A DNA stretch of 64,000 bases from a virus, in the IMG/VR virus record IMGVR_UViG_3300017761_003320, positions 91,202 to 155,201 of that record. One strand, given 5' to 3'. The notes beneath the pieces are model-generated. The model was not told the origin of the DNA, made no database searches, and worked only from the letters and a program-made list of their open reading frames with translations. Positions 3,627 to 60,371 of this stretch are shown here, piece by piece (position 1 is the stretch's first letter; each line of letters starts with the position of its first letter). A program made the translations under genes and the position numbers.

Positions 3627-4072
3627 TATTTTCGACCTAAATCCTTCTCTGTTATAATAACAAATTCCCAATTGCGATCAGCACAATATTCTCGGGCAGC
3701 TTTCCACTTCGCAGTATTTATCCCATATTTGGCAACCTCAGTCAAATACTTTCTTGTTGGTTTTCGTGATGTATCATGAGGTATTGGTTGTTGTGTCTGC
3801 ATAAACGGTTTTACTTCAATCATCTTGATTGCTATTTTGCCAGTTCTATCTTTCATTTTTATGATAAAATCTGGAAAATATCTATGCCACTTACCATCAA
3901 TTGGTGATTTGTAAGGAACTATGACTTCTTCCGAGGCCCATTCTATAACCGAATCATTTTGATCAAATTCGATCATGATCCTTCGCTCCCATAATGAGCG
4001 ATAAATTATATTCGTTGGATCTCCCTTATATTTTGAGGGATTGATGGGTTGATATTTGCCTTTGTATGCCAT
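3626..4072 (-). CDS. gp4: Head completion nuclease
   Basis: MAYKGKY.P.NPSKYKGDPTNIIYRSLWER, WASEE..VPY, HRYFPDF, IEVKP, N.AKWKAA. Confidence 0.92.
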   Translation of the reverse strand: MAYKGKYQPINPSKYKGDPTNIIYRSLWERRIMIEFDQNDSVIEWASEEVIVPYKSPIDGKWHRYFPDFIIKMKDRTGKIAIKMIEVKPFMQTQQPIPHDTSRKPTRKYLTEVAKYGINTAKWKAAREYCADRNWEFVIITEKDLGRK

Positions 4073-4088
4073 ATTTCTATCTAGGCGC

Positions 4089-4096
4089 AATAAATA
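4089..4096 (+). promoter_or_regulatory. T4-type late promoter (AATAAATA)
   Basis: One mismatch to the gp55 consensus TATAAATA; intergenic, upstream of gp48. Confidence 0.6.
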
Positions 4097-4123
4097 TTAC
4101 ATATTTTAAGAGGACTATAATTA

Positions 4124-5236
4124 ATGGCATTTCCTGGGGAAACACCTACAGCTGAATTACAACAATTTCAGGGAATGAGACCTGCGCCACCAGCACGTCG
4201 CGCGCAATCACTTTATTTTCCAAATGATTATAGAAATATTGATCATTGTGTAACATTTCAAGTTAAAAAATTTGAACGTGTCACAAGAACATCAGCTTTA
4301 GCAAATGATCAAACACTTGTAAATCCTAATAGAAATACAAATGCATCTAGACTTTTGACAACTATAACTCTACCCATGCCAAGCATATTTAATACTGAAT
4401 ATGGTGTAGAATATGATGACGCTAAACAAATATCATCGGTAGGTGAACTTGCTGCAACTATGGCATCAATGGCCAGAGGTGGTAATTCGGAGGCGGCCGC
4501 CCGATCTCTTGGTCAAGCATTATCACAAATATATGGTGCTGGTGCCGCGGCAGGTGGCATTGGTTCTGCCGCTCAAAATGCTGGTAATGTAATATTGAGA
4601 CAAATACAAGGTGCCACGCAAACATTAACTCCAGGCGTAGCTGGAGCTGTAGGATTAAGTGCTGCTGCTGGTTTAGCTACTAATGCATCAACATCAGCAC
4701 AAGCAGTAATTGCAAATTTTCTTGGTGTAGCACGAAATCCTCATAAGGTAGTTTTATTTCAGGGTGTCAATTTTCGTAGGCATGTATTTTCATATAAACT
4801 ATCACCTAAAAATATTAATGAAGCTCGATCAATATATAAAATTATAAAAGCATTTAAATATCATATGTCACCAAGCTATGGATTGGGTGAAACTCCTACG
4901 GCCGCACGAGGACTTTTGGCAGGATTAGGATTTGAAGAAGCTGGTGAAACAACTGGTAATATAACATCTGAGGCAGGATCCATATCACGAGCATTTTTTG
5001 AATATCCTGAAGTATTTGATATAAAATTTCAAGGTAGTGCCAGAAATAATTTATTCACTATAGGTGAATCTGTATTAAAAGGGTTTACTGTAAATTACCA
5101 TCCTATGGCATACCCGGCTTATGTAAGGTCTCTAAATTCGCCAAATGTTTCTTCTCCCGCTGAAGTTGAGATAAGTCTTACATTCCAAGAGACCGATATA
5201 GTTACAAAAGAACAAATACAACAATTTGATAGGTAA
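4124..5236 (+). CDS. gp48: Baseplate tail-tube cap
   Basis: ITLPMP, NPH..VLFQGVNFRRHVFSYKLSPKN..E...I..II..FK, FFEYPEVFDI, SLTFQE; upstream of gp53. Confidence 0.85.
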   Translation: MAFPGETPTAELQQFQGMRPAPPARRAQSLYFPNDYRNIDHCVTFQVKKFERVTRTSALANDQTLVNPNRNTNASRLLTTITLPMPSIFNTEYGVEYDDAKQISSVGELAATMASMARGGNSEAAARSLGQALSQIYGAGAAAGGIGSAAQNAGNVILRQIQGATQTLTPGVAGAVGLSAAAGLATNASTSAQAVIANFLGVARNPHKVVLFQGVNFRRHVFSYKLSPKNINEARSIYKIIKAFKYHMSPSYGLGETPTAARGLLAGLGFEEAGETTGNITSEAGSISRAFFEYPEVFDIKFQGSARNNLFTIGESVLKGFTVNYHPMAYPAYVRSLNSPNVSSPAEVEISLTFQETDIVTKEQIQQFDR

Positions 5237-52406: not shown

Positions 52407-54128
52407 ATGGCTATTCATTTCAAAAAGGTTCGGTGGAAGAATTTTCTATCCACTGGAAATGCTTTCACAGAGGTTGAATTAGATCGCAATCAAAATACTT
52501 TGGTTGTCGGTACGAACGGTGCTGGCAAATCGACGATTCTAGATGCTCTGTGCTTTGGTCTATATGGCAAGCCGTTTCGTAAAATTAAGAAAGACCAATT
52601 AGCTAATTCGATCAATGGCCGTGATGTTGAGGTTGAGATTGAATTTAATGTTGCCGGTAGCTCCTATCTGATTCGCAGAGGTATCAAACCAACCGTATTT
52701 GAAATCCATCGCGATGGACAAATGATGGACCAACTTGCTGCATCTCGTGATCAGCAAGAAATGCTAGAGCGCACCATTCTGCGAATGAATATGAAATCAT
52801 TCACACAGATCGTGATTCTAGGTTCATCATCATTCGTGCCTTTCATGCAGCTACCGACATCAACTCGTCGCGAGGTGATTGAAGACCTGCTTGATATCCG
52901 CGTGTTTTCTACCATGTCTTCTCTCCTTAAAGATCGTGTGAGTGCAAACAAAAGCGAATTGGTATTAGCTGACAAAGAAGTTTCTTCAGTCGAAGAAATG
53001 ATTCGCATACAAAAATCTCGCGATGATCATGATGAAAAAATCAAAGCTGATACCATAGAAAAGCTTGAGGATAGCATCAAATTTCTGCAAGATCGAATTG
53101 ATACTCAATCTGGTTCTATCGAAGATTTGATGGCCAAGATAACAAATGAAACCTCTGATATGGTTGATATATCTCTATTGCGTGAGCGCATGACCAAGCT
53201 TAATGAATTGGAAAAGAATCTAGGTCAGAAGCGTAGCAAAGCTTTAAAGATGGTTACATTTTATAGTGAAAATGATAATTGTCCAACATGCTCTCAGATA
53301 ATTAGTGAGGCCCTCAAGACTGAGAAGATCGCAAGTAAGCAATCGACAATTACGGAAGTCGAACAAGCATTAGAAAAATTATCTTCTAATATTGATACCT
53401 TGAGCATTAGTATAAATGATACTAAGCTTAAGGTTGATCGCATCGAAAAACTAAATCGCAGCATAGTCGATATCAATACCGAGATTGCCGCAGATAATCG
53501 CGAGATAAAGACATTACAGCGTCAGATAGCAGATTTACTAAAGCCGCGTATAGTCACCGATCAAGATACACTTGATGATCTAAGGCTTCGACTTAAAGCT
53601 GCTAATGATCGCAAGATTGAACATATGAAGCAGAAGGAGCTTCTTGAAGTTGCAACTGTAATCCTGCGCGATTCTGGTATTAAATCTCGTATCATAAAGC
53701 AATACATTCCAATTATCAATTCGCTAGTGAACAAATATTTGGCCATGATGGATTTCTTTGTCAAATTTGAACTTGATGAATCCTTCGAAGAAAAATTGCT
53801 ATCACGACATAGAGATGACTTTACCTATGACTCTTTTAGCGAAGGTGAGAAAATGCGAATCGACCTTGCTCTATTATTTACTTGGCGCGCAATCGCTAAG
53901 ATGAAAAATAGTGCTAGCACCAATTTGCTTTTGCTTGATGAGGTATTTGATGCATCGCTTGATACAAACGGCTGCGATGATTTTCTGAAGCTACTACAGT
54001 CACTAGATAATACTAATACCTTCATCATATCTCACAAGGGTGAGATTCTGCAAGACAAATTTAAAGACATCATACGCTTTGAGAAGCATAAAAACTTCTC
54101 TCGCATAGCAGGAAATAATTTGCAATGA
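52407..54128 (+). CDS. gp46: Recombination ATPase subunit (Rad50/SbcC-like)
   Basis: WKNFLSTGN, GTNGAGKST, CPTC zinc hook, FSEGEKMRIDLAL, LLDEVFD. Confidence 0.96.
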   Translation: MAIHFKKVRWKNFLSTGNAFTEVELDRNQNTLVVGTNGAGKSTILDALCFGLYGKPFRKIKKDQLANSINGRDVEVEIEFNVAGSSYLIRRGIKPTVFEIHRDGQMMDQLAASRDQQEMLERTILRMNMKSFTQIVILGSSSFVPFMQLPTSTRREVIEDLLDIRVFSTMSSLLKDRVSANKSELVLADKEVSSVEEMIRIQKSRDDHDEKIKADTIEKLEDSIKFLQDRIDTQSGSIEDLMAKITNETSDMVDISLLRERMTKLNELEKNLGQKRSKALKMVTFYSENDNCPTCSQIISEALKTEKIASKQSTITEVEQALEKLSSNIDTLSISINDTKLKVDRIEKLNRSIVDINTEIAADNREIKTLQRQIADLLKPRIVTDQDTLDDLRLRLKAANDRKIEHMKQKELLEVATVILRDSGIKSRIIKQYIPIINSLVNKYLAMMDFFVKFELDESFEEKLLSRHRDDFTYDSFSEGEKMRIDLALLFTWRAIAKMKNSASTNLLLLDEVFDASLDTNGCDDFLKLLQSLDNTNTFIISHKGEILQDKFKDIIRFEKHKNFSRIAGNNLQ

Positions 54129-55126
54129 GACGCGCATTAATTACAGGCATTACTGGACAAGATGGTTCATATCTGGCTGAATTGCTGCTAGAGAAAGGAT
54201 ATGAGGTTCACGGTATCATCCGTCGTTCCTCATCTTTCAATACTGGACGAATTGATCATATCTTTGACAAATTAAAGCTACATTTTGGTGATGTTACTGA
54301 TGGTAGCGCAATGACATCTGTCATCTCGCAAGTGAGGCCGCATGAGATATACAATCTTGCGGCACAGTCTCATGTCAAGGTTAGCTTTGAGATTCCTGAA
54401 TATACTCTTATGACTGATGGGCTAGGTGTGCTAAAGATACTTGAAGCTGTTCGGTCTGCAGGCATACAAGATAATTGTCATATCTATCAAGCTAGCACAT
54501 CAGAAATGTTTGGTTCGACACCTGGGCCACAAGATGAAGATTCTCCGTTTCAACCTTGCAGTCCATATGGATCTGCGAAGCTTTATGCACATTGGCTATG
54601 CGATAACTATCGCAAGTCATATGGTATGCATATTTCATCAGGCATTCTATTCAATCATGAGAGCCCACGCAGAGGAGAGACATTTGTAACTCGTAAGGTT
54701 ACTAAGGCTGCTGCTCGTATCGCAAAAGGTTCTACGGAACCTTTAGTGGTCGGTAATATTCATGCCATTCGTGATTGGGGTCATGCTAAAGATTATGTTG
54801 AAGCCATGTGGCGTATGGTTCAACAAAAAGATCCAGATGACTATGTAATCGCAACTAACCGTTGCTTGTCAGTAAAATACCTGATAGATTTAGCATTTGA
54901 TTATGCAGGTGTCACTCTTGAATGGCATGATAGTAGAAACGGTGAATTTGCTGCGGATGCAAAGACTGGGCATATTTTGGTGATCACCGATCCAAAATAT
55001 AGACGACCTAATGAGGTTGACTTTCTGCAAGGCATACCTACCAAAGCTAAAGATGTGCTTGGTTGGGAACCAACTACGTCTTTTGAAGATTTGATTAAGG
55101 AGATGGTTGAACATGACCTCAAATAA
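54125..55126 (+). CDS. gmd: GDP-mannose 4,6-dehydratase
   Basis: ALITGITGQDGSYLAELLL.KGYEVHG, NLAAQSHV.VSF, QASTSE, SPYGSAK, LFNHESPRRGETFVTRK, RDWGHAKDY. Confidence 0.96.
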   Translation: MRRALITGITGQDGSYLAELLLEKGYEVHGIIRRSSSFNTGRIDHIFDKLKLHFGDVTDGSAMTSVISQVRPHEIYNLAAQSHVKVSFEIPEYTLMTDGLGVLKILEAVRSAGIQDNCHIYQASTSEMFGSTPGPQDEDSPFQPCSPYGSAKLYAHWLCDNYRKSYGMHISSGILFNHESPRRGETFVTRKVTKAAARIAKGSTEPLVVGNIHAIRDWGHAKDYVEAMWRMVQQKDPDDYVIATNRCLSVKYLIDLAFDYAGVTLEWHDSRNGEFAADAKTGHILVITDPKYRRPNEVDFLQGIPTKAKDVLGWEPTTSFEDLIKEMVEHDLK

Positions 55127-56036
55127 TATTATTGTCTTTGGTGGTACAGGTATGCTTGGTCGCGCCGTTGTTGAACGTCTGCGACGTGATGGTGAGCGAG
55201 TATATGCTTTAGGTAGCTCCGATTGTGATCTTACAATATTAGATGATATCTCAATGGCTATTGCTGAAATAAAACCTAAAGCAATATATCATTGTGCGGG
55301 TCATGTTGGTGGGATTCTCAATAATCGCGATAATCAATTAACATTTCTTATCAGAAATACACAAATGGGATTGAACGTAGTCGATGTTGCTACCAAATAT
55401 AAAATTCCAAAGTTAGTATTTGCTGGTTCATCTTGCATCTATCCACGCAATTGTCCACAGCCAATGACTGAGCTTATGATTGGATCTGGTCCACTTGAGC
55501 AGACAAATAGAGGTTATGCAGTCGCAAAACTTACAACACTTGAAGCCGTTAATTTTGCTAGAGAAAAAGGCTTCAATTATATGACAGTCATGCCCTGCAA
55601 TTTGTATGGCCCTGGTGATAATTTTGCTGAAGGCGGACATGTGCTATCTGCTTTGGTTCGTAAAGTATGTGATGCTCGTCATAATAAAAGCGAAACTGTT
55701 GAGGTCTGGGGAACGGGATCCCCACGCAGGGAATTTCTGCATACGAGCGATGCTGCTGACGGTATCGTGACTGCATCTGAAAAGCTTAATGATGCAGTAG
55801 TTAATATAGGCAGTGGTGAAGATTTGTCGATAGCAGAGTTGGTTTTACTTGTGGCTGAGGTAGTCGGTTGGAATGGTGTATTGAAATTTGATACATCTAA
55901 GCCTGATGGTACACCAAAGAAGCTACTAGATATAAGCAAGCTAAAATCTGTAGGCTGGTCTCCTAAGATCGATCTACCTTATGGTATTGAAATGTTAGCG
56001 AAGGAATATGTGGATGCAACTTTTAAAACCCAATGA
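55113..56036 (+). CDS. fcl: GDP-L-fucose synthase
   Basis: GGTGMLG, AGHVGGI..N, GSSCIYP, LE.TN.GYAVAK, PCNLYGPGDNF, HV..AL, WGTGSPRREFLH, KPDGTPKK. Confidence 0.92.
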   Translation: MTSNNIIVFGGTGMLGRAVVERLRRDGERVYALGSSDCDLTILDDISMAIAEIKPKAIYHCAGHVGGILNNRDNQLTFLIRNTQMGLNVVDVATKYKIPKLVFAGSSCIYPRNCPQPMTELMIGSGPLEQTNRGYAVAKLTTLEAVNFAREKGFNYMTVMPCNLYGPGDNFAEGGHVLSALVRKVCDARHNKSETVEVWGTGSPRREFLHTSDAADGIVTASEKLNDAVVNIGSGEDLSIAELVLLVAEVVGWNGVLKFDTSKPDGTPKKLLDISKLKSVGWSPKIDLPYGIEMLAKEYVDATFKTQ

Positions 56037-56541
56037 CCCTCTGCTTAGGCAGAAAAGCGAGGAGTTTGATTTCTCATCTCCACAGATAGATCCCATGCAA
56101 CTGCATGAAATGCTTCGTGATAAGATATGCGAACTAAAGACATTGGGATTATCTGCGCCACAACTAGGTATCATGGTTCGTGTATTTGCATTTGGTAATC
56201 CAGATGATCCAAATAGCATCATGTCGGTATTCAATCCGAGAATTGTTAATTATGGTTCAGAACTTGATGTCTATGAAGAACAATGTTCCACCTTTCCTGG
56301 TCTATTCTTGAAAGTTAAAAGACCAACTACTATCAGAATGCGTTATTCTAATCAAGAAGGTAATACTGAGACTCATAATTTTCAGGGTATCACAGCCAGA
56401 GTCGCATTACATGAAATCGATCATCTAGATGGCATTCTATTCACAGAGCGGGCAAATAGATATCATCTTGATCAGGCCAAACGCAGAAAGCTAAAACTTG
56501 ATAGGGTGAGAAAAGCGAATGATCGACAAGCTGCTCTGTGA
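56008..56541 (+). CDS. def: Peptide deformylase
   Basis: GLSAPQLG, EEQCSTFPG (variant of EGCLS), ARVALHEIDHLDG. Confidence 0.88.
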   Translation: MWMQLLKPNDPLLRQKSEEFDFSSPQIDPMQLHEMLRDKICELKTLGLSAPQLGIMVRVFAFGNPDDPNSIMSVFNPRIVNYGSELDVYEEQCSTFPGLFLKVKRPTTIRMRYSNQEGNTETHNFQGITARVALHEIDHLDGILFTERANRYHLDQAKRRKLKLDRVRKANDRQAAL

Positions 56542-57349
56542 TGAGCTTACTAGATCCTCTTCTGATACTGAGTGCGCTATTCTCCTCTCTGGTGGGGTCG
56601 ATAGTTTATCAGTGGCTTTTGCGGCGCAAAGATTAGGTAAGAAGATTCATGCTTATACCTTTCGATTAACTGGACAGACCAGTTATGATTCTGACAAGGC
56701 CATTGAAGTATGTGATATCATGGACTGGAATTGTCATGTCATAGAAGTACCTGTTGGTAGATTAGAAGAAGATTTTAAATATCTTGCTAACACTATTAAG
56801 TGTGTAAAAAAGACACACTTTGAATGTTGTTTTCCGTTTATTCATGTATACCCTTACATAAAACAGCGTGAAGTTTTAAGTGGCTGGGCAGCTGATGGTT
56901 ATTATGGCATCAGCAAGAAAGCTGTATTGCATTATTCGCAGACTAAAGAAAAGCTTGATGAATTTCGTGATCAGTATTTTTCTGATGATGCTAGAGCTGG
57001 ATATAACTGGCATAAGCGCATAGCAGATATTCATGGTAAGAAACTTATAACACCTTATCTATGTCAAGAGGTCAAAGATTTCTTTTATACCATGGATTGG
57101 AATCAACTAAACAAACCTTACCAGAAGCATCATGTGGTCGAAGCTTTCCGTAAAGAGTTTGATGCTATTGGTAAATTTAAAAAGCATATCAACTTACAAC
57201 TTGGTAGTAATATTGATGTGCTGTTTGAGACTCTACTATATAATAGCAGAATTAATTTTAAGGAACGCAGTAGAGTCATGGATATGTGTAGGGATTGGGC
57301 ACAGCTACAAAAAGATACTGGACCTAGCTTAGATCAATTTCTAACTTAG
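56519..57349 (+). CDS. Asparagine-synthetase-like ATP-dependent amide ligase (synthetase domain only)
   Basis: PP-loop LLSGGVDS, VLSGWAADGYYG, ITPYL; no N-terminal Ntn glutaminase domain. Confidence 0.75.
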   Translation: MIDKLLCDELTRSSSDTECAILLSGGVDSLSVAFAAQRLGKKIHAYTFRLTGQTSYDSDKAIEVCDIMDWNCHVIEVPVGRLEEDFKYLANTIKCVKKTHFECCFPFIHVYPYIKQREVLSGWAADGYYGISKKAVLHYSQTKEKLDEFRDQYFSDDARAGYNWHKRIADIHGKKLITPYLCQEVKDFFYTMDWNQLNKPYQKHHVVEAFRKEFDAIGKFKKHINLQLGSNIDVLFETLLYNSRINFKERSRVMDMCRDWAQLQKDTGPSLDQFLT

Positions 57350-57352
57350 CCA

Positions 57353-57381
57353 TTGACATCTAGATCAATATGGAGTATTAT
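57353..57381 (+). promoter_or_regulatory. Sigma70-like promoter for the first MTase (probably leaderless)
   Basis: TTGACA-N17-TATTAT; ATG at 57389. Confidence 0.7.
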
Positions 57382-57388
57382 ATCTGTT

Positions 57389-58537
57389 ATGACAAAGTAT
57401 CAGCCGTATACCGTTCAAGATGTTAAAGACAGCTCAGCCCGCGAGCTGTTCACCGTAGTCAGCACATTTGCTGGCGGCGGTGGTTCTAGCACAGGCTATC
57501 GCCTTGCTGGTGGTAAGGTCATTGCTATCAATGAATTTGTCGAAGAGGCTATCAAAACCTATTCGACAAACTTTCCTGATACCAAAATCGTGCCAGGTGA
57601 TATCAAAACCTTAACTGGTAATGATCTACTAAAGGCAGCTGGGCTAAAGCCTGGTGAACTTGATATTCTGGATGGTTCTCCTCCTTGTTCTGCTTTCTCG
57701 GTAGCAGGCAAGCGTGAGAAAGGCTGGAACAAAGAGAAGTCATACAGCGATGGTATGAAGGTTGAGAATATCGAGGATTTATTCCTTGAATTTATTCGCA
57801 TCGCTGAAGAAATTCAACCCAAAGTTATTATTGCTGAGAATGTCAAAGGCATCACAATGGGAGAGGCCACAAAAAAGCTGAATGAGTTTATCAATGCATT
57901 TAGTAATATTAAGCCTGGTTATCATGTAACTTATGAAGTATTGAGTGCTGCAAATTTTGGTACTCCTCAAGGCCGTGAGCGTACATTCTTTGTATGCATA
58001 CGGCATGATATTGCAGACAAGGTTGGTATTCATATGTTCAACGCCAATCAAACTGTATTTCCGAATCCTATTACACCTGAGCATATTTCAATTAGTCAGG
58101 CCTTTGAAAATCTGGTTAATGATCCAGAAGAAGAAAAGATGCTTGAAGATTATGTGCAAAACTGTTGGCAGAAGAAGTGGGTTGAGATGTTACCTTTCAA
58201 CCCCTCTAAACATACAAAGCCATCAATGCCAGAGTTTCGTGATGTAAATCCTAAAGCATCTTTGTTCAATATGATTCGACCTGCGCCGCATCTACCTAGC
58301 CCGACTGTAACACAAGCTGGTCAGAAGCGCGGGGTATCTGGTGTGCTTCACTATGCGAAACATCGTAAATTAACTGTTATGGAATTAAAGCGAGTAATGG
58401 GTTTGCCTGATGATTATCAGCTTACTGGTTCATTCGATCAGCAGGCCGAGCGTATTGGGCGTATGGTTGCGCCAAAGATGATGTGCGCTTTAGCATCTAA
58501 TATCTATGAGAATGTGCTAAAGCCCTACAAGTCATGA
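57389..58537 (+). CDS. C5-cytosine DNA methyltransferase-fold enzyme, putative carboxymethyltransferase (paralog 1)
   Basis: FAGGGG, GSPPCSAFS, ENVKG, QGRER; motif X reads ERIGRMV instead of the usual GN(S/A)V. Confidence 0.85.
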   Translation: MTKYQPYTVQDVKDSSARELFTVVSTFAGGGGSSTGYRLAGGKVIAINEFVEEAIKTYSTNFPDTKIVPGDIKTLTGNDLLKAAGLKPGELDILDGSPPCSAFSVAGKREKGWNKEKSYSDGMKVENIEDLFLEFIRIAEEIQPKVIIAENVKGITMGEATKKLNEFINAFSNIKPGYHVTYEVLSAANFGTPQGRERTFFVCIRHDIADKVGIHMFNANQTVFPNPITPEHISISQAFENLVNDPEEEKMLEDYVQNCWQKKWVEMLPFNPSKHTKPSMPEFRDVNPKASLFNMIRPAPHLPSPTVTQAGQKRGVSGVLHYAKHRKLTVMELKRVMGLPDDYQLTGSFDQQAERIGRMVAPKMMCALASNIYENVLKPYKS

Positions 58538-59700
58538 TATCTAATTACCAACCCTATTTCATGAAAGATGTGCGCGAATCATCCGCGCGAGAGAGGTTCA
58601 ATGTCATTTCGACCTTCGCTGGTGGGGGTGGCTCATCTTTAGGTTATCGTCTAGCAGGTGGTAAGGTGCTATGCGTAAATGAGTTCGTCGAAGAAGCGAT
58701 AAAGACGTATACGCATAATTTTCCAGACACCAAGGTAATACCTGGGGACATCAAGGGCTTATCAGGCAAGGACTTGATGGATGCTGTGGGTATTAAGAAA
58801 GGTGAGCTAGACATATTGGATGGGTCGCCCCCTTGTTCTGCTTTCTCTACTGCAGGCAAGAGACACAAAAATTGGAATAAGACAAAGCTATACAGTGACG
58901 GTAAGAAGGTCGAGAATATTGAAGATTTGTTTCATGAATACATTCGTATAGCAACTGATATTCAACCAAAGGTTATTATTGCTGAGAATGTGCGCGGCCT
59001 AACTATTGGTAAAGCTATAGCCAAGCTAAATGAATTTATCTCAGCGTTTGAAACCATTCTGCCTGGATATTTGGTGACATACGAAGTCCTACATGCTTGC
59101 GATTTTGGTGTACCACAAGAACGACCTCGCACCTTTTTCGTCTGTGTTAGACAAGATGTTGCAGAAAAGGTCGGGCTTCATATGTTTAATATGAATACCG
59201 AGGTTATTCCAAATTCAACGTCGAATCACATATCAATGGGTGATGCTCTATCCGATGTAGCCCTTGACATGGATGAGATACAAATGTTAAAAGACTATAT
59301 TCAAAACAATTCTGAGAACCAGAGATACTGGCTTTCTATCTTACCTAAGAACCAAACAAAGAGGTTGAATCCATGCTCACCGGAGATTCCGAAGGAGCTA
59401 AATCCGAACGAGAATTACTTCACTTTGATTCGGACGTGTGCAAACTTGCCAAGTCCTACCCTGACTGCGAATGGATCCAAACGTTCAGGCGCAGGTCTGT
59501 TTCATTGGAACGAGGATCGCAAGTTCACGATACGAGAACTGATGAGATTGCAGGGCCTACCGGAGGATTACGAACTGACGGGAACCTTCGACCAGAAAGC
59601 GGAGCGAATCGGGAGAATGGTAGCACCGAAGGTGATGGCTGAGATTGCTAATCGAGTATATGATAGAATTTTGAAACCGTATAAAGAGGCTACACAATGA
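58534..59700 (+). CDS. C5-cytosine DNA methyltransferase-fold enzyme, putative carboxymethyltransferase (paralog 2)
   Basis: Same motifs (FAGGGG, GSPPCSAFS, ENVRG, QERPR, ERIGRMV) with a divergent target-recognition region. Confidence 0.85.
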   Translation: MISNYQPYFMKDVRESSARERFNVISTFAGGGGSSLGYRLAGGKVLCVNEFVEEAIKTYTHNFPDTKVIPGDIKGLSGKDLMDAVGIKKGELDILDGSPPCSAFSTAGKRHKNWNKTKLYSDGKKVENIEDLFHEYIRIATDIQPKVIIAENVRGLTIGKAIAKLNEFISAFETILPGYLVTYEVLHACDFGVPQERPRTFFVCVRQDVAEKVGLHMFNMNTEVIPNSTSNHISMGDALSDVALDMDEIQMLKDYIQNNSENQRYWLSILPKNQTKRLNPCSPEIPKELNPNENYFTLIRTCANLPSPTLTANGSKRSGAGLFHWNEDRKFTIRELMRLQGLPEDYELTGTFDQKAERIGRMVAPKVMAEIANRVYDRILKPYKEATQ

Positions 59701-60371
59701 CAAAATTTACATTTGCAACCCGTGATGAGGGTTTCGACAACCATATCAATGCATCTATTCGTCACTATGGTGATTTGTGGAATGATGTGCTTTCAATGTC
59801 ACAGTATTTTGTCGAAGATTATACGACAGTCGTTGATATCGGTTGCTCGACTGGCAAGCTACTTAAAGCTATGATTGCACAGAATACATTTGCCCCATAT
59901 GCATCTTATGTTGGTGTTGAGGTTGAACCTGATTTCTATCCTGGATTCGATCAAGATATGGGTCAATACCCAAACCTTCACTTTGAGAGAAGTGATATCA
60001 GGCCATTCAAATTCAAGAACTGTTCGCTTGTTACGTCCATTTTTACTCTGCAATTCATGCCACAACGTGATCGTCAAGATGTAATTAATTCCATCTATGA
60101 TGGCCTGCATAGAGGTGGGGCATTTATTTTTGCAGAAAAGACTGTGGCTGAGTCGCCGCGGATTCATGAGATTCGTACCTTTACATATTATGATTTCAAA
60201 CGCGAATCCTTCACTACAGATGATATTATGGATAAAGAGCGTACACTACGTCATATGATGAAGCCAAATACGCGAGAGGAATTGGTAAATATGGTAAGCC
60301 GTGCTGGCTTTGATCATATAGATTCCTTCTGGCAGAACCACGCATTTACTGGTTTCATAGCCATTAAGTAG
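59697..60371 (+). CDS. cmoA: CmoA-like carboxy-SAM synthase
   Basis: FDNHINASIRHY, VVDIGCSTG, IFTLQF, GGAFIFAEK, YDFKR, KERTLRHMM parallel the CmoA motifs (F.DM..RSVPGY, DLGCS.G, NFTLQF, GG.L..SEK). Confidence 0.75.
   Translation: MTKFTFATRDEGFDNHINASIRHYGDLWNDVLSMSQYFVEDYTTVVDIGCSTGKLLKAMIAQNTFAPYASYVGVEVEPDFYPGFDQDMGQYPNLHFERSDIRPFKFKNCSLVTSIFTLQFMPQRDRQDVINSIYDGLHRGGAFIFAEKTVAESPRIHEIRTFTYYDFKRESFTTDDIMDKERTLRHMMKPNTREELVNMVSRAGFDHIDSFWQNHAFTGFIAIK

Follow-up and report, generated by a model that had tools for sequence, protein, structure and literature searches.

IMG/VR virus record IMGVR_UViG_3300017761_003320, which is complete, 155,201 bp long, and has direct terminal repeats, ends in a stretch of 64,000 nucleotides (positions 91,202 to 155,201) that is called "the window" below. 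Four intact open reading frames (ORFs) lie on its + strand, at window positions 56519-60371. By every feature that can be tested in the sequence, this cassette is a member of the published CmoA-CmoX-CmoY system of DNA modification, whose chemistry is already known. What sets it apart is a tandem, diverged pair of CmoX enzymes, probably with non-GC targets. The best explanation overall, and one that we favor strongly, is a system of the published type in which the two CmoX copies serve different sites, neither of them plain GC.

The reference for this assignment is Synechococcus phage S-B43 (Yang et al., Nat Commun 2025, December; PMC12783734; PDB 8YF3). There, SpCmoA produces carboxy-S-adenosylmethionine (Cx-SAM) ~10 times faster than Escherichia coli CmoA; SpCmoX, for which Cx-SAM is the sole accepted cofactor, makes 5-carboxymethylcytosine (5cxmC) in GC sites via Arg350; and SpCmoY adds glycine to 5cxmC as an amide, which is found at ~75% of GC sites in virion DNA; the mark blocks HhaI (PMC12783734). 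The same study catalogues 5,615 CmoX, 4,257 CmoA, and 2,251 ligases, with clustering cut-offs of 1e-70 for CmoX and 1e-56 for the ligase. Replacing the motif-X Asn by a positively charged residue also permits Cx-SAM use in M.MpeI N374K (PMC12783734; PMC12015181). That enzyme differs from those described below in being engineered, in having Lys, and in being CG-specific, and it gives only a weak local match (E-value of 9e-10). The features of the present cassette are as follows, in window coordinates.

56519..57349, + strand: cmoY, predicted glutaminase-less Asn-synthetase-type AMP-forming amide ligase, 276 residues (49% full-length identity to SpCmoY)
57353..57381, + strand: predicted sigma-70-type promoter, TTGACA-17-TATTAT, 11/12 consensus (consensus match)
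57389..58537, + strand: cmoX1, predicted C5-cytosine carboxymethyltransferase, 382 residues (52% to SpCmoX; PDB 8YF3, E-value 4e-112)
57686-57688, + strand: CmoX1 catalytic Cys100 (alignment)
58295..58354, + strand: CmoX1 target-recognition loop, TQxG class; the SpCmoX loop (TASGG) is 6 residues shorter (alignments)
58460-58462, + strand: CmoX1 motif-X Arg358, codon CGT (alignment, ERIGRMV)
58534..59700, + strand: cmoX2, predicted second carboxymethyltransferase, a lineage-specific paralogue of cmoX1, 388 residues (49% to SpCmoX; 8YF3, E-value 1e-105)
58834-58836, + strand: CmoX2 catalytic Cys101 (alignment)
59449..59508, + strand: CmoX2 target-recognition loop, of a type seen in this lineage alone (alignments)
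59614-59616, + strand: CmoX2 motif-X Arg361, codon AGA (alignment, ERIGRMV)
59697..60371, + strand: cmoA, predicted Cx-SAM synthase, 224 residues (54% to SpCmoA, E-value 8e-76)
60237-60239, + strand: CmoA Glu181, at the position of E. coli Arg199 (alignment)
60249-60251, + strand: CmoA Arg185, invariant, one helix turn beyond Glu181 (alignment)

The two loop segments are presumed to be recognition loops from the general layout of C5-methyltransferases.

In cultured phages, S-B43 genes are among the best matches to proteins of the window, at coordinates equal to those in the source data of PMC12783734, and all three protein types are present and 49-54% identical to their S-B43 counterparts over the full length. 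Because the matches to S-B43 have E-values of 4e-79 for the ligase, 6e-119 for CmoX1, 7e-112 for CmoX2, and, at the weakest, 8e-76 for CmoA, the homology is not a matter of chance; both CmoX values and that of the ligase are well inside the clustering cut-offs given above. As in S-B43, the setting is a T4-like phage in which the three gene types are clustered, the SPPC motif and an equivalent of Arg350 are present, and the ligase lacks a glutaminase domain; the complete genome gave no match to CmoB or to N6/N4 or Dam-type families and no C5 enzyme besides CmoX1 and CmoX2. Whereas S-B43 has one CmoX and the order A-Y-X, this phage has two and the order Y-X-X-A; its recognition loops are longer and different, its genome is without GC depletion, and it has an internal promoter between cmoY and cmoX1. 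Unlike in S-B43, photosystem reaction-center genes found no match in the phage genome, so this is perhaps not a cyanophage. Paralogues or tandem CmoX copies are not mentioned in the accessible portions of the text and supplements of PMC12783734.

In the proposed mechanism, CmoA would convert S-adenosylmethionine (SAM) and host prephenate to Cx-SAM; the prephenate must be supplied by the host, since no chorismate mutase was found in the phage. CmoX1 and CmoX2 would then act on phage DNA, flipping out cytosines and placing the carboxymethyl group on C5 while the motif-X Arg holds the carboxylate, and CmoY would adenylate the carboxyl and couple it to an alpha-amino acid, for which glycine is the likeliest candidate. 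This bulky modified base would block host restriction enzymes, and the duplicated, diverged CmoX pair would be retained for different recognition sites, neither of them plain GC. A first-pass annotation of this DNA had proposed such a route (the phage's own Cx-SAM, carboxymethylation, amidation, and protection from restriction) and had pointed to a similar cyanophage pathway; that pathway exists and has been demonstrated in S-B43 (PMC12783734), and all three of its protein types have close homologues here. Genes, residues, homology, conservation, selection, and composition are seen directly in this DNA, whereas the enzyme activities, the target motifs, the choice of amine, and protection from restriction are inferred. 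The pathway steps are assigned by homology to S-B43, and on that footing the pathway as described very probably operates in this phage.

Both CmoX proteins match Pfam DNA_methylase (~1e-57) and have the SPPC Cys together with equivalents of SpCmoX Phe25, Glu47, Phe48, Asp69, and Arg350. The replacement of the motif-X Asn by Arg, noted in both enzymes at the first pass, is borne out: this Arg aligns with SpCmoX Arg350, the M.HaeIII Asn, and the HhaI Asn304 position. Invariant alignment columns, in CmoX1 numbering, are F27, E49, F50, D71, E150, R196, and R198, which include the motif VI Glu and the motif VIII Arg.

The case for two targets begins with how the copies differ. CmoX1 and CmoX2 are 62% identical overall, but 73% in the catalytic N-terminal part versus 41% in the variable target-recognition region, whereas orthologues have no such regional contrast (89-90% for CmoX1 and 82-83% for CmoX2 in both regions). 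Both genes are intact and in unchanged order in 14 related IMG/VR contigs (83-100% identity), and, with nonsynonymous divergence (dN) of 0.06-0.12 against synonymous divergence (dS) of 1.6 to saturated among related contigs, both copies are under purifying selection. Regional divergence followed by constraint is, as read from the alignments, the pattern of duplication, change in the target region, and then fixation. A word-limited search for CmoX2-type variable regions returned 8 clusters, all at least 84% identical. Tandem CmoX genes also occur elsewhere: two more lineages join an S-B43-type loop with another class, and one contig has two other classes, such that these tandem pairs always combine two different loop classes; two contigs have separated, non-tandem pairs. 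One further phage group with paired Arg-type CmoX (the L395 group) has an additional loop type.

Which sites might the two enzymes recognize? Target sites were approached with a codon test that asks which synonymous third bases are used ahead of a given following base and how C compares with T within codons, with codon family controlled. In the positive control, S-B43, GC is depleted to 0.35 (z of -20) and NGC codons are 12% C, and pooled loci with the S-B43-type loop, repeated contigs included, give a GC value of 0.21. The present genome gives 1.46 (z of +19), with no depletion, and over the whole genome GC palindromes are avoided (observed/expected: GCATGC, 0/19; AGCGCT, 3/29; TGCGCA, 3/25). 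Indirectly, this GC value, this avoidance, and the differing recognition loops make it likely that neither CmoX is a plain-GC writer. AC, on the other hand, is depleted to 0.70. The depletion holds on both strands and in each fifth of the genome, with NAC codons the lowest. Five records of the tandem lineage have AC values of 0.70-0.86, versus 0.94-1.66 in 29 other viral genomes, and values below 0.9 occur at 8 of 9 de-duplicated loci of the tandem lineage versus 1 viral locus among 163 others. For CC, the median is 0.61 in 14 genomes with only a CmoX1-clade enzyme versus 0.81 in 10 without detected CmoX (Mann-Whitney p of 0.002, for genomes that are not independent), and loci with a TASGG plus TQxG pair are depleted in both GC (0.33) and CC (0.45). 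Taken with the divergence of the recognition regions, these data suggest that CmoX1 and CmoX2 probably differ in target. We tentatively speculate that CmoX1 has a CC-type site and CmoX2 an AC-type site, an assignment that we consider doubtful as it stands. Equally tentative is a more general scheme in which the loop would set the base beside the target C (TASGG for GC, TQxG for CC, the CmoX2 loop for AC), tandem stacking would widen coverage, and the target would be legible from codon depletion.

Several points weigh against this reading of two targets. The codon test is unspecific, given that GC depletion of 0.53-0.73 is also seen in phages without CmoX in the part fetched. Similarly low AC occurs at five loci on bacterial contigs, and the AC signal amounts to a single lineage and may reflect host composition. 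CC in this genome is 0.83-0.87, inside the control range. The proposal that a TANG loop means AC is unsupported, as two single CmoX enzymes with a TANG-starting loop go with CC, not AC, depletion. Finally, the tree in which CmoX1 and CmoX2 form sister clades (SH-aLRT of 93; stem of 0.65 for CmoX2 versus 0.16) is a quick version without bootstrap. A further candidate, CGCG or GGCC as targets on the strength of over-representation, was rejected, since the control targets are depleted rather than enriched and ACGCGT is avoided. Two side observations concern the same composition: AGATCT is found once against 48 expected in the whole genome, where GAATTC, ACTAGT, GAGCTC, and ACGCGT are also strongly avoided, and GGCC is enriched 1.55-fold, unlike in the other phages tested.

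Could the two enzymes instead share a target? With the same pathway, identical or nested targets would make the second copy a matter of dosage or timing, and AC depletion would reflect host or lineage composition. The shared promoter and translational coupling of cmoX1 and cmoX2 are consistent with this, as are the low AC at proteobacterial contig loci and the dinucleotide pattern of the genome (AT-high, GC-high, AC-low), which we take to resemble that of Alphaproteobacteria. However, the recognition region holds most of the divergence, which was then fixed, other tandem pairs join different loop classes (including the TASGG plus TQxG pairs with both GC and CC depleted), and AC values are 0.95 and 0.94 in two phages, one infecting an alpha- and the other a betaproteobacterium. 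We regard a shared target as unlikely, though a serious competitor to the diverged pair.

The ligase was correctly described at the first pass as glutaminase-less and Asn-synthetase-like: CmoY matches Pfam Asn_synthase (5e-12), has no glutaminase domain, and has its SGGxDS loop at residues 24-29. No sequence match of CmoY to any solved structure was found. Its AlphaFold model (pLDDT of 91.8) matches beta-lactam synthetase and AsnB (E-values of 2e-10 to 1e-9), with which it has the synthetase-domain fold and PP-loop in common; it differs from them in lacking the N-terminal glutaminase domain and in being only 13-19% identical. The amine, which the first pass gave as unknown, is now less open. 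CmoY matches the glycine-using SpCmoY at 4e-79, under the network cut-off of 1e-56 (in a search whose size differs from that of PMC12783734), and the two are of equal length and have long invariant blocks across 21 homologues. Glycine is thus the probable amine, as judged from homology. An amine other than glycine, which would yield an undescribed base, is improbable given the missing glutaminase domain, the shared length and blocks, and the place of CmoY within the SpCmoY network cut-off, but we would give it some weight.

That one copy, presumably CmoX2 with its long stem branch, is an ordinary 5-methylcytosine methyltransferase, an inactive partner, or an enzyme with another substrate is quite improbable: CmoX2 retains the Cys, the ENV and RxR motifs, the cofactor residues, and Arg361, and wild-type SpCmoX, with the equivalent Arg, accepts only Cx-SAM (PMC12783734).

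CmoA calls for separate comment, as the first-pass annotation had rightly read KERTL where E. coli has KRSML and had worried about the key Arg. E. coli CmoA Arg199 binds the carboxylate (4GEK/4IWN; PMC3663124), and the 4GEK alignment, numbered by Tyr39, Asn132, Phe137, and Glu164, pairs it with Glu181. This is no argument against activity: SpCmoA, a proven enzyme, likewise has Glu at that position, and an invariant Arg follows one turn later. K180, E181, L184, R185, and K189 are invariant in 49/49 phage CmoA sequences, and helix 174-187 holds both E181 and R185, four residues apart. Relative to bacterial CmoA, the fold and the Tyr39, Asp62, Gly64, Ser66, Phe137, and Glu164 positions are retained, whereas Arg199 becomes Glu181 and the Glu203 position becomes Arg; read most simply, the alignment would mean that the two charges (Glu181/Arg185) have traded places across one turn of the helix. 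The score against NCBIfam TIGR00740 (8e-29; 101) is under the cut-off of 193, but the homology to SpCmoA is full length, the gene adjoins cmoX, and the best structural matches of the model are YecO/CmoA (Z of 27.5, rmsd of 2.3, 217-220 residues aligned). Because active SpCmoA has the same Glu, the missing Arg199 and the low score mark a difference between phage and bacterial CmoA rather than between active and inactive enzymes. Bacterial CmoA serves tRNA modification, whereas the CmoA here would serve DNA modification. Thr-UGU, Ser-UGA, Ala-UGC, Leu-UAG, Val-UAC, and Pro-UGG are tRNA classes that carry uridine 5-oxyacetic acid (cmo5U), and all six are among the 17 tRNA genes of the phage (ARAGORN; whole-record 34899-71707). 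A CmoA that chiefly feeds host CmoB is nonetheless very improbable, since cmoA is coupled to both cmoX, the phage has no CmoB, and T4-like phages often encode tRNAs of this kind; supply to tRNA modification would be at most a side effect.

The first pass had called the four genes contiguous. The ORFs are indeed intact, and cmoX1/cmoX2 and cmoX2/cmoA overlap by 4 nt each, but a 39-nt gap bearing the predicted promoter parts cmoY from the cmoX1-cmoX2-cmoA block. The cmoX1 ATG lies 7 nt past the -10 box; a TTG start at 57353 was rejected in favor of ATG 57389, because 57353-57358 is the -35 box. Of 8 relatives checked, 7 retain the -35 box with its spacing, and four have a perfect -10 box. Judged by consensus, the transcript would probably begin at or beside the cmoX1 ATG and thus be leaderless and early, and cmoX1-cmoX2-cmoA would probably be a separate early unit, with cmoY closing the upstream run gp47-gp46-gmd-fcl-pdf-cmoY. 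Six sigma-70-type consensus promoters have a gene-opening ATG 6-7 nt after the -10 box (window 51308, 57353, and 60385; whole-record 25550, 34712, and 51696; the genes include gp47, cmoX1, and a VWA gene), which suggests leaderless early mRNAs.

Which sites do the 5,615 candidate CmoX recognize, and which amines do the ligases use? PMC12783734 leaves both questions open, and the value of this locus is that it offers two CmoX paralogues in one background along with a ready prediction. If the prediction is true, CmoX2 would be an AC-specific cytosine-C5 carboxymethyltransferase, a specificity undescribed for the CmoX family. Carboxymethyl writers beyond GC and CG contexts would extend enzymatic methylation sequencing and DNA labeling, and from tandem CmoX pairs one would learn how phages broaden their defense against restriction.

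The capsid of this uncultured phage is at most 64% identical to those of cultured phages, and neither a close host nor a prophage copy turned up in a scan of genomes. The cassette is flanked upstream by gp47-gp46-gmd-fcl-pdf and on the other side by a VWA/CobS pair; the GDP-mannose dehydratase and GDP-fucose-synthase-like genes (window 54125-56036) lie directly upstream of pdf and cmoY. Elsewhere, Erwinia, Dickeya, Pseudomonas PaBG, Yersinia, and Staphylococcus phages have cmoA and mostly cmoY homologues, with no C5 enzyme above the 1e-40 cut-off; being cultured, these systems are easier to test. In the 9 kb examined of Methylophilales phage Melnitz, positions 3995-5212 hold a CmoX-like gene (41%) whose Arg/Asn site is Leu, and cmoA is absent from that stretch. 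CmoX-like genes (40-57%) also occur on contigs recorded as bacterial (Bacteroidales, Endozoicomonas, SAR116, and others), and at least one of them retains the Arg.

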